Positions 12,851 through 60,435 of a stretch of DNA of 64,000 bases are shown here, in pieces. Under the pieces are notes generated by a model. The model saw only the letters and a list, made by a program, of their open reading frames with translations, did no database searches and was not told the origin of the DNA. This DNA is from a virus (lineage: Duplodnaviria; Caudoviricetes). How positions within the stretch are numbered: position 1 is the first letter of the stretch; each line of letters starts with the position of its first letter. The DNA lies in the IMG/VR virus record IMGVR_UViG_3300044656_000123, positions 1 through 64,000 of that record. One strand, given 5' to 3'. The translations under genes were made by a program, and so were the position numbers.

Positions 12851-12974
12851 TACCTGTGCTATACTGAGCGTACGAAATATGTTTTCAAGTAAAGCTAGAA
12901 GCTTGAGAAGATAAGTCGGGGTAAATGGTATGCGCCAGATAAAGGCAGGCTAAATAGTGGCCTGCCTTTATCTG
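12837..12974 (+). ncRNA. Candidate ~100-nt sRNA cassette (promoter, ORF-less transcript, terminator)
   Basis: TTGACG-17-TATACT at 12837-12865; 15-bp hairpin CAGATAAAGGCAGGC/GCCTGCCTTTATCTG. Confidence 0.35.
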
Positions 12975-13540
12975 TTGTGAAAATTGTACGTTCTTGCCGT
13001 ATCGTATGCTTTCATCAATCTAGGTGTGCGATCAGCGTGCGCGGTAAGCTGATTACACATTTTGCATGACCAATACACATTGTCGTATTTGTAACCTGTA
13101 GTTATATACTCACACATACTACACTCTATCCACCTGTAAAGCTTACTTTCAAAGCACGCTAACTTCATGCCAGTTGTATCTACGCAAGGATTAAACATGT
13201 ATCTAGCAATGTATACATCAAAACAGTGTATAGAGTATACTGCCCTGGCTATTAGCATTTCTATGTCTGTAGGCTCAGGCCCTTTTGCCTCGATGATCAT
13301 ACGGTCATACCCGCAATTAACAAGAAAGTCAGGCGTGTAATATTCTCTGCCTATTTCTTCCGTTAAGCCTGGGATTTTCTTAAGGTCAAACGTAAGCGGC
13401 TCATAGGTAAAATCAAATCTAAGTGCATCGTACAGTATCGCTAAGCGTGCTTCCAGCGTACTTTTAAAGTCTACTCCATTCCATGATACAGGGACCGGGC
13501 GAATCTTTTCATAGCGTTTGTCTAGCATAATCTTCTCCAT
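12968..13540 (-). CDS. PD-(D/E)XK endonuclease with C-terminal Zn ribbon
   Basis: FKSTLEAR...YEP...YTPDF...IIEAKG plus CxxC...CxxC. Confidence 0.8.
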   Translation of the reverse strand: MEKIMLDKRYEKIRPVPVSWNGVDFKSTLEARLAILYDALRFDFTYEPLTFDLKKIPGLTEEIGREYYTPDFLVNCGYDRMIIEAKGPEPTDIEMLIARAVYSIHCFDVYIARYMFNPCVDTTGMKLACFESKLYRWIECSMCEYITTGYKYDNVYWSCKMCNQLTAHADRTPRLMKAYDTARTYNFHNR

Positions 13541-13600
13541 ATTGCTGAGTATACAGGTATAGAACGATCAGAGCAAACAGCTAGTATTTTTGATTCATCC

Positions 13601-13781
13601 TTGACAAAGCCGGGAGCTTCGGGTATACTGCGTGCATAGTCCGAACAGGGAATTGCAACTAATAACAAGGACCGCAAAGAGTAGCCGCAGCTTATAGCCC
13701 GTTTGGGGTTGTCAGACAGAACCATTTCAATCTCCTTACTTAAAGAAAAGCGCCTAAGTGTCTCAGGGCGCTTTTCTTTTT
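13601..13781 (+). ncRNA. Candidate sRNA with anti-Shine-Dalgarno tail
   Basis: TTGACA-17-TATACT at 13601-13629; stem CCGAACAGGG/CCCGTTTGG; TCTCCTTACTT at 13731-13741; terminator 13742-13781. Confidence 0.5.
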
Positions 13782-13791
13782 GCATCATTCG

Positions 13792-13820
13792 TTGACAATT
13801 TGTAATGGATCTGTTATAAT
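13792..13820 (+). promoter_or_regulatory. Sigma70-type promoter, class 2 (TGTAATG spacer)
   Basis: TTGACA ATTTGTAATGGATCTGT TATAAT. Confidence 0.8.
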
Positions 13821-13835
13821 TTTCAACGAAAGGAG

Positions 13836-14090
13836 TTGAGCATGATTCAAAATCAGCGCGGTTATTACGCATACAAAGCTAGGACAGCAAGGCCGAAGTC
13901 AGGAAATACAAAGGCGGCGCACCTTATTGCCGATAAAATAATCTTAGCAGCAATGCAAGAGGGTGTCCTTTTAGACAATCTCGTAGCGCAATATCGTGAA
14001 GTGTTCACTGATGCTACCTCAGATGGTATTAAAGGAGCTTTGAAAAAGATTGCAGACCACCACAGAAGGCAGGTGCCAGATGAATCCTAG
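13836..14090 (+). CDS. Hypothetical protein
   Basis: AGGAG RBS downstream of a consensus promoter. Confidence 0.6.
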   Translation: MSMIQNQRGYYAYKARTARPKSGNTKAAHLIADKIILAAMQEGVLLDNLVAQYREVFTDATSDGIKGALKKIADHHRRQVPDES

Positions 14091-14721
14091 TGGCTTGCTT
14101 ATCAGTATTGAAGGCTTGCCTATTAGCGGCAAAACAAAGCAGGTATTAAATCTGTTCAACTGGCTTTGTGACAACGAACTTGAATGTATCGCGTGTAAAA
14201 CTCCGGGCGGCACAACGTTAGGACGGGAAGTTAAGCATTTGCTTTACGGGAGGCCAGATTTACGCAAAGGTCTCAACCCATTCTCAGAGACGTTTTTGAT
14301 GCTGGCTGACATCGCTCAGCTATACGAAGAAACAGTATTGCCTTGCCTGAACCACAATAAATTCATTGTTGTGCAAGAAGGCGGCATTAGCACGCTTCTT
14401 GCCTTGCAGAGCGTTAACCCTGATGGAGACATGTTTATCGCTCCGAACAGTGTTTTAGCTGTGCAGGGGAGGAAGCCGGACCTGACCATTTTCTTAGACT
14501 GCACTGTGCCGACAGCGCAAAAACGCGCTCAGCACTACGCTTACCCTTACCACTACACCGGGACCGAACTACAGATAATGCGTGATTCGTTCTTTGTTCA
14601 GGTTCAAGAAAACCCGCAAACCATGCGCTATGTTAACGGGGAAAACGAACCTGAAGCAGTGATTGAAGATATATTGTTCATCATCAAACCATTGCTGAGA
14701 GAGAGGCAATACATTGACTGA
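14080..14721 (+). CDS. tmk: Thymidylate kinase-like protein (divergent)
   Basis: ISIEGLPISGKT P-loop, TPGGT, KPDLTIFLD. Confidence 0.8.
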   Translation: MNPSGLLISIEGLPISGKTKQVLNLFNWLCDNELECIACKTPGGTTLGREVKHLLYGRPDLRKGLNPFSETFLMLADIAQLYEETVLPCLNHNKFIVVQEGGISTLLALQSVNPDGDMFIAPNSVLAVQGRKPDLTIFLDCTVPTAQKRAQHYAYPYHYTGTELQIMRDSFFVQVQENPQTMRYVNGENEPEAVIEDILFIIKPLLRERQYID

Positions 14722-15091
14722 AATACCAGAGCACTTAGATAGAAACCTTGTGCCGATAGAAGTGGGCAGCGTTATTGCTCACGGCGGCGAAGGCGGCATT
14801 AACATAGGTGTCGTTACACGTTTAACTGAGCACAAAATTGAGATCAAGCGCTTTTGCGTTGACATGGAGCATATACCGGGCGAAGATTGGAGCCGGGAAA
14901 ACTACATGGTCACGGGCTACTATTGGGGTAAGACCATGCTCAATAGCGCTGACAGGTGCATGGTCTTACCTATGACCGAACAGGATATAGTAATGCATTT
15001 TTTGATGGCGCATCGCATAGGTGAAGTTTTGCCGCCACATGAGCGCACACGAAACATCACCGAGATACCGAGCGATGGTACTATAGGCTAG
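14714..15091 (+). CDS. Hypothetical protein (SH3/KOW-like N-terminus)
   Basis: LDRN..PIEVGS.I...G.VT pattern; overlaps the tmk stop. Confidence 0.55.
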   Translation: MTEIPEHLDRNLVPIEVGSVIAHGGEGGINIGVVTRLTEHKIEIKRFCVDMEHIPGEDWSRENYMVTGYYWGKTMLNSADRCMVLPMTEQDIVMHFLMAHRIGEVLPPHERTRNITEIPSDGTIG

Positions 15092-15117: not shown

Positions 15118-15147
15118 GACTGTGCAAGGAGCGCTCCTTGCACAGTC
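15118..15147. terminator. Perfect 30-bp palindrome followed by T-run
   Basis: GACTGTGCAAGGAGC|GCTCCTTGCACAGTC then TTTTT. Confidence 0.7.
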
Positions 15148-15457: not shown

Positions 15458-15572
15458 TAGACTCAGCAATACGGATCGGCTATACTGTTTGTATTACGAA
15501 ACACACGCGCCTCTTCTCCTTATTGCATTTTAAAGATACCTGCCTAAAACCCCCTTTAGGCAGGTATCTTTT
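15458..15572 (+). ncRNA. Candidate short sRNA with anti-Shine-Dalgarno motif
   Basis: TAGACT-17-TATACT at 15458-15486; TCTCCTTATT at 15515-15524; 17-bp terminator stem 15532-15571. Confidence 0.4.
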
Positions 15573-47583: not shown

Positions 47584-47613
47584 AACGGGTTTTAAAATTG
47601 TCATAAATACCCC

Positions 47614-47642
47614 TTGACATATGCGTAAAAGCATGGTAAATT
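47614..47642 (+). promoter_or_regulatory. Class 1 promoter
   Basis: TTGACA TATGCGTAAAAGCATGG TAAATT. Confidence 0.75.
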
Positions 47643-47696
47643 ATTGACAACGAAGCGATACAAAAAAACGAACGCAGAAAGTAAGGAGTAAGAAAC

Positions 47697-49502: not shown

Positions 49503-50096
49503 ATGATCACACATAAAGAAATACGCACGTCAACCGGGCTTACGTGGGACATGCTAAAAGATCAAGTGCTAGCACTTGGCAGACTTTTTTGCTCAGGTGT
49601 CGATGTATATGACAAGGCTATTGACTTCTGTGAGTACATCATGACACTGATGCAATGCATGGAAAACCATGACTACGAGGTAGAAGCAGACAAGGCTTTT
49701 ATGTGGTTGTACGTGGCCTCACATCAATACTACGTTCGTCACAGTCTTTGCATTGTCGGATACAAGAAATTTATTGATCTACTAGTACACCGTGATTATA
49801 GTCCTTACCCCGGCGCGATAGTTCGAGATAATTTGTATTGGCTCTTTACGCAGAAATGTTTTGTCACTCCTACACACGGCGCGGTGTTGTGGAATCTGTA
49901 CTTGACGACAGGTACAGAGCAAGAAGCTAAGCCGAATCTTAGCGCTTACATGACGTTTGCATTTCTCTATAAGCATATGCCTGTATGGTATCGCAAAGAC
50001 TTGCCCCCTACTGAGACATGGAAAAGAGAAGCGATATTCATGGCCTTACCTGCCATACTTGGCACTGATTTTTGTGAGATTCAAAAATTGCCATAA
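49503..50096 (+). CDS. Hypothetical protein
   Basis: AAGGAG RBS. Confidence 0.6.
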   Translation: MITHKEIRTSTGLTWDMLKDQVLALGRLFCSGVDVYDKAIDFCEYIMTLMQCMENHDYEVEADKAFMWLYVASHQYYVRHSLCIVGYKKFIDLLVHRDYSPYPGAIVRDNLYWLFTQKCFVTPTHGAVLWNLYLTTGTEQEAKPNLSAYMTFAFLYKHMPVWYRKDLPPTETWKREAIFMALPAILGTDFCEIQKLP

Positions 50097-50103
50097 ATAC
50101 CAC

Positions 50104-50132
50104 TTGACACATGCGTAAAGAAATGTTATATT
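50104..50132 (+). promoter_or_regulatory. Class 1 promoter
   Basis: TTGACA CATGCGTAAAGAAATGT TATATT. Confidence 0.75.
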
Positions 50133-50174
50133 GAGACCACGACAACGAACACACAAAGTAAGGAGTTGAGACAC

Positions 50175-50837: not shown

Positions 50838-51149
50838 ATGCAACTGACTGAAGAAGAAGCGCTTGCTATGTTCCTGATCTTAAAAGCGTGCATAGTAGAA
50901 AATAACGTAGAAGGTGCAAGGCATTACATGCGCCAATATAAAGGTAGCTTAAAAAATGTCATAACGTTCGCTTCCAAGCTGTATGATACGATGCCATACA
51001 ACTATAGCAAGCCGGAATTAATCGGCAAGGTCATAGCGACTATTCAAGTCATAGACCCGGAAACAGGTGAACCGCGTGAAAGCTGTGAATGCAGCATGTG
51101 TACAAACAACACGGAATTAAAAGTAAACGAAGCGCATACAGGAGAATAA
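50838..51149 (+). CDS. Hypothetical protein
   Basis: AGGAG RBS. Confidence 0.55.
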   Translation: MQLTEEEALAMFLILKACIVENNVEGARHYMRQYKGSLKNVITFASKLYDTMPYNYSKPELIGKVIATIQVIDPETGEPRESCECSMCTNNTELKVNEAHTGE

Positions 51150-51154
51150 AAATC

Positions 51155-51874
51155 ATGGGTTTCACTGAGCAACTTTGCGAAAATCTTAAAATTACAGAGA
51201 AAGAACGCGAAAAACGCGCAGAATTATCCGCGCTATTTCAAAACGCGGTCTCTGCACTGGACGTTGACACGAAATTTTACCATACTGACAAACAAGGCCC
51301 GATGAGTATAGACCTTGCACGCCGGGACAAATGGGCAACTGTGTACCGTATGACACTACACATGATCTGCGAAGGTGAATATGATGTCATCATAGGTATG
51401 CAGCAGGAAGAAGGTAAAACATACCTGATCGACCACACTGAGCCGCTTACAGTAGAGGCATGGGTATACATTTCTAAGTTCTTTACCATCGTTTACAACA
51501 CATGGCTAGCTGAGCAAGAAGCGGCGCGGGTTGTGCCTGTAGCCAAGTACCTAGCCAAGATTGCTGTACCAGAAACGCCGTACTATCATAATTGGATAGT
51601 ATCAGAATACGAAACTAAGGCATGGAGTAAAGCGCTTCCCGGCGTGACTAGCCTTGTCTCTACACTGGATGAAACAAGTTTTATGACTCTCTGTTTTGCC
51701 GCGCAAAACGATGCGTTTCTAGCCGATAAAACTGGCAGAGTACCGCAAGAAGGTAAGGCATTTCAGTACATGACCAAATTGTACTTGCAGTTTCACCGCA
51801 TACGCCTAGCTGAGAAGCACGCCGGGTTTAATGAAGCGTCAAAAATTTTTGACGCGATGATAACACTAGAGTAA
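51155..51874 (+). CDS. Hypothetical protein
   Basis: Start MGFTEQ with AGGAG RBS. Confidence 0.6.
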   Translation: MGFTEQLCENLKITEKEREKRAELSALFQNAVSALDVDTKFYHTDKQGPMSIDLARRDKWATVYRMTLHMICEGEYDVIIGMQQEEGKTYLIDHTEPLTVEAWVYISKFFTIVYNTWLAEQEAARVVPVAKYLAKIAVPETPYYHNWIVSEYETKAWSKALPGVTSLVSTLDETSFMTLCFAAQNDAFLADKTGRVPQEGKAFQYMTKLYLQFHRIRLAEKHAGFNEASKIFDAMITLE

Positions 51875-51958
51875 CAACCTTGCTCCTTACTGAAAACCCG
51901 TAACTTTAAAGTTACGGGTTTAATTTTTGCCAATTTTTAAAATTGCTATAAAACCCTA

Positions 51959-51987
51959 TTGACATATGCGTTATGGCATGTTATATT
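51959..51987 (+). promoter_or_regulatory. Class 1 promoter
   Basis: TTGACA TATGCGTTATGGCATGT TATATT. Confidence 0.8.
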
Positions 51988-52046
51988 TAGCACATCGAAG
52001 CGAACACAAAGAACTGAACGAAGTGACAAGTAAGGAGCATAAAACT

Positions 52047-55423: not shown

Positions 55424-55509
55424 CGCTCCTGATCTCACCAGAAAACCCGGCTCTAGTCACCAGCTAGAGCCGGGTTTTCTTTTACCATATAAAGAACATA
55501 AAACCATGC

Positions 55510-55538
55510 TTGACATATGCTATTTCATATGCGATACT
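55510..55538 (+). promoter_or_regulatory. Class 1-like promoter
   Basis: TTGACA TATGCTATTTCATATGC GATACT. Confidence 0.65.
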
Positions 55539-55588
55539 TGACAATACAACTTAATAAATTTTGACCGCTAAGTAAGGAGTAACAAAAC

Positions 55589-60104: not shown

Positions 60105-60348
60105 TGTAATTTTTCCCTTAGTTCTATAACTTCCCTATGGAAAGTGACTCATAATCGCGTTTAAATGCGTTTCTGAGGGTGCAAAAGTCTAGCCATAGAA
60201 TCACCCTACTCATCTTTGCAAGGACCTCTCTTGACAATCGGCCTTGTTGCCAATTGTGGCGCGATTAAATGGCATTTTAGAAACGCTGGTGTATCTATAC
60301 AGGGACCTCTAAAAACCCTCAGATTTCTATTTAAATGCGATTAAATAG
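60105..60348. repeat. 244-bp element, copy 2
   Basis: Matches 56751-56994. Confidence 0.9.
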
Positions 60349-60435
60349 GTATTGACAAATGTCTGTAGGCATGCGATACTTGACATACAACTTAATAATT
60401 TCTAAGACCTGAACACAGGTAGAAAGTAAGGAGCA

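Follow-up and report, generated by a model that had tools for sequence, protein, structure and literature searches.

We found that positions 13601-13783 of the window, the 64,000-nt stretch of DNA analysed here (the first 64 kb of a 96,118-bp IMG/VR viral contig, whose whole genome is referred to as G000), most probably form a conserved non-coding plus-strand promoter-to-terminator unit whose anti-SD tail is constrained, rather than a gene for a 67-aa protein. The unit would be a self-contained gene for a non-coding RNA of ~148 nt, with its start at a host-type promoter and its end at a strong intrinsic terminator. The features of the unit and of its surroundings are as follows.

12968 to 13540, minus strand: gene for a PD-(D/E)xK-type endonuclease of 186 or 190 aa (phrog_945 endonuclease), divergent from P1; context.
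13522 to 13725, minus strand: 67-aa ORF with the motif 6 nt before its ATG; judged spurious.
13548 to 13553, minus strand: invariant TATACT, putative -10 box of a promoter (P3) of the endonuclease gene, inside the 3' end of the 67-aa ORF.
13601 to 13629, plus strand: promoter P1, TTGACA-17-TATACT, with 11 of 12 consensus matches.
13636 to 13783, plus strand: predicted non-coding transcript of ~148 nt, its start placed 7 nt past the -10 box.
13636 to 13659, plus strand: 5' box ATAGTCCG...GGAATTGCAAC with SD-like AGGGA/AGGA, recognized by sequence conservation.
13696 to 13709, plus strand: small central hairpin GCCC-GTTT-GGGG, an RNAalifold consensus helix.
13732 to 13741, plus strand: anti-SD CTCCTTACTT, complement of AAGTAAGGAG, with 9 of 10 positions invariant.
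13742 to 13781, both strands: bidirectional intrinsic terminator with the invariant loop TAAGTGTCTCAG and a T-run, supported by scan, folding and alignment.
13792 to 13820, plus strand: promoter P2, TTGACA-17-TATAAT with TG, 12 of 12 matches; context, outside the RNA.

The initial annotation had described a consensus promoter, a transcript of ~145 nt and a terminator, preceded immediately by an anti-RBS stretch. All of these were present in the sequence (P1, the predicted transcript of ~148 nt, a hairpin with T-run and CTCCTTACTT at 13732-13741), the 10-mer lying one base to the right of the position that had been implied. The context of the anti-SD (13721-13741) reads ACCATTTCAATCTCCTTACTT. 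The terminator stem consists of GAAAAGCGCC and GGCGCTTTTC at 13745-13776, followed by the T-run, and the hairpin can be written as GAAAAGCGCC, an 11-nt loop and GGGCGCTTTTC. The plus strand of 13636-13783 contains no ATG and no SD-led ORF. P2, which is kept in relatives, leads an operon with a gene for an 82-aa protein at 13842 and a dTMP kinase gene at 14050-14721 (Thymidylate_kin Pfam match). Past a further gene (14714-15091), the terminator at 15118-15147 is a loopless palindrome in which AAGGAG is paired with CTCCTT (GACTGTGCAAGGAGCGCTCCTTGCACAGTC).

In DNA and protein searches of cultured phage genomes, no close relative was detected, the best helicase showing ~25% identity. Scans of IMG/VR with the endonuclease, the dTMP kinase and two hairpin-loop DNA patterns did not yield any homologue, a tail-protein alignment against IMG/VR gave 33 distant loci of which none carried the RNA unit, and a scan of one metagenome added no contig to those already recovered. 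Related syntenic contigs were reached via homologues of the endonuclease, which share 46-50% identity in these loci. The comparison set comprises five sequences in four lineages, namely, the window, L008 (flanks 99.3% identical to the window) and L003, L006 and L002 (~67-73% DNA identity to the window). A distant relative, L010 (102 kb, 53% GC), carries the endonuclease, a homologous unit and an operon with a homologue of the 82-aa protein as one block at a different genome position.

L008, L003, L006 and L002 have units that are homologous to that of the window and 113-148 nt long. The P1 hexamers are kept in the five sequences of the four lineages, with an A-to-G change in the -10 box of L002 as the sole substitution; the spacer is 17-18 nt long throughout and free in sequence. 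Indeed, a comparison of the window with L008 (~99% identical) revealed three or four substitutions in the P1 spacer and none in the hexamers. At the other end of the unit, nine of the ten anti-SD positions are invariant, compared to ~10% of columns in the adjacent RNA body, and the terminator, loop included, is invariant or nearly so in all lineages. The 5' box is kept in the window, L008 and L003, partly kept in L006 and missing from L002, and hairpins of the CCC-N4-GGG type equivalent to the central one are found in L003, L006 and L010. In the proposed RNA, the body would be free to drift, with the first ~20 nt, the small central hairpin and the last 10 nt before the terminator (CUCCUUACUU) held constant. 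Such a pattern of conservation is the signature of a plus-strand transcription unit with an RNA product and a constrained 3' tail. The combination of invariant promoter hexamers, anti-SD and terminator with a drifting body and a failed ORF (see below) thus gives good support to a conserved plus-strand non-coding unit, and the non-coding cassette proposed initially is borne out by the conservation of promoter, anti-SD and terminator in four lineages.

No match to Rfam was obtained for the whole window at the gathering score, the C4 antisense RNA family included, and a permissive search (E up to 10) returned sub-threshold terminator-like matches only. A tRNA scan found none at the 13601-13783 unit. 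Moreover, a covariance model built from the homologues matched the homologous units and the L010 unit only and found no extra copy in ~420 kb of related and unrelated phage loci. The unit represents a novel family of RNAs, although of a functional type that is already known.

The initial annotation had offered as an alternative that the motif is simply the RBS of the minus-strand ORF. This ORF does exist: it runs from 13725 down to 13522 with the motif 6 nt ahead of its ATG, a spacing as at real genes, and it ends in an ATGCTAG overlap with the endonuclease start. Some start codon lies 6-13 nt from the motif in all relatives. On such an account, AAGTAAGGAG would be a working RBS for a small protein or a ribosome-loading or stabilizer site on a transcript feeding the endonuclease. 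However, the comparative data, which provide the strongest argument against a 67-aa gene, show that the frame is not maintained. In L008 the ORF is cut to 52 codons and carries L-to-S and PG-to-FC changes, and the ORF following the motif has 14 or 34 codons in L003, 28 in L006 and 4 in L002; indel lengths are not divisible by three, and there is no common frame. The codon score of the 67-aa ORF (-0.018) corresponds to the 2nd percentile of real coding windows (0.189 ± 0.096) and resembles that of spurious ORFs (-0.036 ± 0.11). The ORF has no homologue and no Pfam or PHROG family match and is absent from the gene calls of the source collection; its exact sequence is missing from a collection of 15 billion proteins in which the adjacent 82-aa protein of the same contig is present. 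On the minus strand upstream of the motif we observed no promoter with at least 9 of 12 matches, and the terminator hairpin stands directly in front. Most of the ORF lies upstream of the putative, invariant -10 box that the endonuclease gene has for itself, and HNH and EndoVII insertions cut the tail of the ORF harmlessly. The 67-aa gene was rejected on its missing homologues, its spurious-like codons, its truncation in L008 and the lack of a frame in L003, L006 and L002; comparative, codon-usage and database evidence thus counters this alternative, which we regard as very improbable.

The endonuclease, which also shows weak TnsA-like and endonuclease I Pfam matches, is accompanied by an octamer, TATACTCA (13553-13546, minus strand), that is invariant in the five sequences. 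Its TATACT lies exactly 7 nt before the first endonuclease ATG (13540), so that a leaderless mRNA could yield the 190-aa form; the 186-aa form found in the database starts at the second ATG (13528), behind GGAG. The region beside the RNA unit (12968-13576) is a homing-endonuclease hot spot, with a PD-(D/E)xK endonuclease in all relatives. L008 has an extra HNH gene of 288 aa (L008:1371-2291) between the endonuclease -10 box and the endonuclease gene, L006 has an Endonuclease_7 gene in the same slot (L006:448-975), and in L010 an Endonuclease_7 gene (L010:3136-3441) flanks the homologous unit at its different genome position.

Conservation is unbroken from the RBS behind P2 back to the anti-SD motif (13732-13836, ~105 nt). 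Part of the anti-SD conservation could therefore be at the DNA level, since the motif lies at the edge of a block that also holds the terminator palindrome and P2. In its full form, this explanation takes 13732-13836 as the control region of P2, the palindrome being a protein operator and insulating terminator of which the SD-like motif is a part, and P1 as the divergent partner of the endonuclease promoter, giving an RNA without a function of its own. The continuity of the block is consistent with such an arrangement, as is the hairpin loop, whose invariance is typical of sites bound by proteins but unusual in simple terminators. Both palindrome arms are almost constant, and covariation at the RNA level is weak for this reason. 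However, P1 is separately kept ~100 nt away across a variable body, which is hard to explain if its product is irrelevant, and the layout of an anti-SD before a terminator is repeated at two unrelated places with different hairpins. A DNA-level role, or a by-product RNA without function, seems quite improbable.

We then considered what the conserved tail of the RNA might recognize. The sequence AGTAAGGAG occurs 15 times in the window, compared to 0.36 expected copies (40-fold), and none of 100 shuffles reached 15. For 14 of the 15 copies, an ATG that opens an ORF of at least 67 codons follows at a distance of 6-11 nt. The tagged starts listed in the initial annotation (44569, 47697, 50175, 52047, 55589, 57568 and 60760) were all verified, as was the ATGGTTC with which gene 47697 begins. 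Genome-wide, the tagged genes are grouped in a single plus-strand block at 37.7-65 kb. They are ORFans, and a common promoter of the TTGACAtATGCg type precedes about half of them as first cistrons. Early RBSs of relatives were taken from the contigs of two 40%-identical proteins found with the 615-aa product of a tagged gene. These contigs cover the early region and stem from the sequencing runs that also gave the L003-type and L002-type relatives. The homologous genes on them bear (A/C)GTAAGGAG, the same tag being used by related phages.

In front of the tagged genes, a promoter context recurs (..cataaatacc.cTTGACAtATGCgtaa.., with -10 boxes resembling TAtAtT), and the leaders are similar in part, as seen at 47590-47680, 50070-50157, 51940-52029, 55480-55571 and 60330-60425; 60425 and 60743 have CCTGAAC..AGGTAGAAAGTAAGGAGCA in common. 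Duplicated expression cassettes are suggested by this shared context and by the similar leaders. On both strands of G000 we counted AAGGAG 65 times, AAGGAGG 0 times and GGAGG 33 times, long SDs of the (T)AAGGAG type always stopping short of the further G with which the canonical CCUCC anti-SD would pair.

The tail is predicted to be largely unpaired in the folded RNA, and opening the anti-SD would cost 1.3-2.6 kcal/mol, compared to about -13.5 kcal/mol for the 10-bp duplex. No other segment of the RNA has more than one complementary site in the genome; for the anti-SD, sites of at least 10 nt number 13-14, and all of them are RBSs. In the mechanism that we consider the most likely, the tail, as the exact complement of the extended SD tag (A)AGUAAGGAG on 14 promoter-proximal ORFan genes at 37.7-65 kb, would pair with translation-initiation regions, compete with the 30S subunit and lower translation; it also matches the SD core ahead of the adjacent operon's first gene. 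The anatomy of the unit, its conservation, the failure of a coding alternative and the complementarity are shown here, and from these we infer that the RNA is made, that it would pair with the tagged sites and that this pairing would repress translation. A tail that pairs with the ribosome-binding regions of phage mRNAs and reduces their translation has a probability that falls a little short of even, and opinion on its main target, the tagged early set or the adjacent operon, is split about equally.

The extent of the pairing bears on its specificity. Complementarity ends at the core of 9-10 nt, and target flanks did not add pairing compared to shuffled flanks (mean of -22.7 versus -22.2 kcal/mol for 14 targets). 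The only nominal outlier, in one of 14 tests, was gene 47697 with its ATGGT match. Specificity over any strong SD is thus thin, since the flanks add nothing beyond the core. Seed and tag did not covary in the phages compared, because both are static; they are unchanged in L003-type and L002-type phages, and the sole change in the seed (last base T to C in L002) is unmatched in the L002-type RBSs seen. The L010 unit has no anti-SD, and the tag was absent from the 13 kb of L010 examined, the early region lying outside those 13 kb. P1 is a host-type consensus promoter, as are the early promoters of the proposed targets, and this membership in the early class is a misfit with delayed shut-off unless further assumptions are made. 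Of the repressor-RNA reading, the conserved plus-strand unit and the constrained anti-SD were retained, and neither covariation nor flank pairing was found to support it.

A second role has to be weighed for the same sequence elements, namely, that of a cis-acting leader or attenuator. P1, a leader of 110-145 nt and the terminator would then provide regulated entry into the downstream operon, with the short RNA mostly a by-product, and in read-through transcripts the anti-SD would pair back with the first cistron's SD, silencing that cistron. A leader role is made possible by L010, since its unit lacks the anti-SD and reads straight into the operon: only ~25 nt separate it from the opening gene of the homologous operon, and no second promoter intervenes. 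Moreover, when hypothetical read-through transcripts were folded, the anti-SD was paired with the downstream SD in four of four lineages (summed pair probability of 5.3-5.7), and cognate duplexes of arm and translation-initiation region (TIR) ranked first among 24 permutations. A -10-like element (CATAGT/TACAGT) is also found at about +6 in the window, L003 and L010, but it is absent in L006 and L002. The margin in the permutations was only 0.8 kcal/mol, and complementarity of the flanks past the core was not significant (P = 0.26, 0.07, 0.95 and 0.11). Likewise, tail and downstream TIR were tried as a covarying inverted repeat; as the flank shuffle test was not significant, this counts only as a weak point in favour of the leader explanation. 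The downstream SD, GAAAGGAG, accounts for CTCCTT only and not for the invariant ACTT. Finally, read-through is unneeded in the window clade, since the perfect P2 (12 of 12) lies between terminator and operon. We thus consider a leader with a by-product RNA unlikely.

The tail could also be read as imitating the 3' end of the host 16S or pre-16S rRNA (..AUCUCCUUACUUAAAGAA..) and acting as a decoy for a host or phage factor. CUCCUUA is indeed the canonical 16S 3' terminus, and the following bases of the tail have what we take to be a resemblance to the enterobacterial 16S-spacer junction. The phage's use of AAGGAG (65 times), and never of AAGGAGG, fits the same idea. However, the resemblance past CUCCUUA varies among the relatives; such mimicry appears extremely improbable.

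Returning to a tail that targets phage mRNAs, we found further anti-SD elements of similar layout on the plus strand.

15458 to 15572, plus strand: second cassette, with TAGACT-17-TATACT, CTCTTCTCCTTATT (CTCCTTA at 15516-15522) and a terminator.
51883 to 51891, plus strand: third anti-SD, CTCCTTACT, located in the 3' UTR that follows gene 51089-51874; a terminator hairpin comes 2-4 nt further on.

L003 and L002 retain the second cassette, and so does the distant L010, whose version reads CCTCCT plus CTTTCTCCTTAT; the terminator stems of the cassette show compensatory changes. The minus-strand ORF that follows the SD of this cassette has 8 codons, and 2 in L010. At the third element, the only minus-strand start codon past the motif opens an ORF of 3 codons. 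Three of the four plus-strand CTCCTTA heptamers lack a credible start on the opposite strand, and all three lie at most 12 nt from a terminator hairpin, a proximity that is far from chance by our own estimate that terminator-proximal windows make up ~3% of intergenic space. The phage group might use a set of anti-SD RNAs (at least one of them stand-alone, at 13.6 kb, a short cassette at 15.5 kb and a 3' UTR at 51.9 kb), each with a CUCCUUA-type seed that would lie directly before the terminator hairpin. By titrating tagged RBS classes (AAGUAAGGAG, AAUAAGGAGAA), these would exert an RNA-based, regulon-wide control of early translation. We offer this as a tentative and, on balance, doubtful proposal.

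Short promoter-to-terminator units were also seen elsewhere. Beyond the window, the minus strand of G000 at 68500-69400 carries an array of them; in one unit, CCTTACTT is found close to the 5' end and CATTCTCCTTTAA ~14 nt ahead of the terminator, and its opposite strand holds only a TTG-initiated ORF of 71 codons. In L010, the 2 kb past the tail genes (L010:7346-9428) have no called genes and contain tRNA genes (Leu-AAG, Leu-TAG and Asn-GTT) together with several units of ~110 nt, each with a TTGACA-17-TATACT promoter and a terminator and without an ORF. This region looks like an RNA-gene island.

Trans-acting small RNAs with pyrimidine-rich anti-SD seeds are known from RsaE/RoxS in Firmicutes and DicF of the Qin prophage. 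The unit shares with these an independent promoter, a Rho-independent terminator, the lack of an ORF and a short, unpaired C/U-rich seed suited to several SDs; no homology in sequence or structure was observed. In RNAs of the RsaE/RoxS and DicF type, loops or the 5' end usually hold the seed, and the targets are host regulons. In contrast, the proposed targets here are the phage's own early genes, marked by one common extended SD tag. In phage lambda, the strong constitutive promoter PR', the 6S RNA of ~150-200 nt and the strong terminator tR' stand directly before the late genes, and the L010 homologue has exactly that layout. The window clade differs in having a second consensus promoter past the terminator, so that a terminator followed by an operon with no intervening promoter is a feature of L010 only; the downstream operon, moreover, serves nucleotide metabolism and encodes small proteins instead of late functions.

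[quoted passage not shown] The lytic phage PAK_P3 likewise has two abundant RNAs of ~100 nt, sRNA1 and sRNA2, of unknown function, in intergenic or tRNA regions (PMC4933390). The equivalent region of L010, with its tRNA genes and promoter-terminator units, is similar to the settings of these RNAs; for sRNA1 and sRNA2, unlike for the unit described here, no anti-SD seed or common RBS target is reported (PMC4933390). As summarised in PMC12197685, the c4 antisense RNA of phages P1 and P7 (immI operon) covers RBSs through short complementary stretches and blocks translation. Like c4 as portrayed there, the present RNA is a small phage RNA upstream of, and codirectional with, genes under its putative control. 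It differs in having its own promoter and terminator, c4 being described there as processed from the target transcript and as using loop sequences (PMC12197685). Also unlike c4, it has a linear seed tail beside the terminator, many candidate targets and no Rfam match.

The nearest likeness to the tag itself is given by the SAS/ESAS elements of Cluster K mycobacteriophages, conserved motifs that are longer than the core of an SD and end at a distance of 3-8 nt from the start codon (Pope et al. 2011, PMC3203893). They occupy the nonstructural half of the genome in one orientation, bar a single opposite-strand site in several genomes, and the authors left it open whether an RNA or a protein binds them (PMC3203893). 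The tag resembles them in being longer than the SD core and close before start codons, but the motif (GGGATAGGAGCCC) and the host group differ and no partner RNA is described in PMC3203893. Here, in contrast, a conserved promoter-terminator unit encloses the one copy in reverse orientation.

A function is known for very few of the small RNAs that lytic phages encode. Proteins, such as RegA and RegB of T4, mediate the known post-transcriptional shut-off of early phage genes. If the unit is only a leader or an insulator, it is an ordinary one. If, on the other hand, one short RNA does occlude a common tag on a dozen early genes, it would be a timing device made of RNA only and could be used, as a portable tool, for multiplex control of translation. 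It would also hint at the partner of the "start-associated sequences" in other phages.
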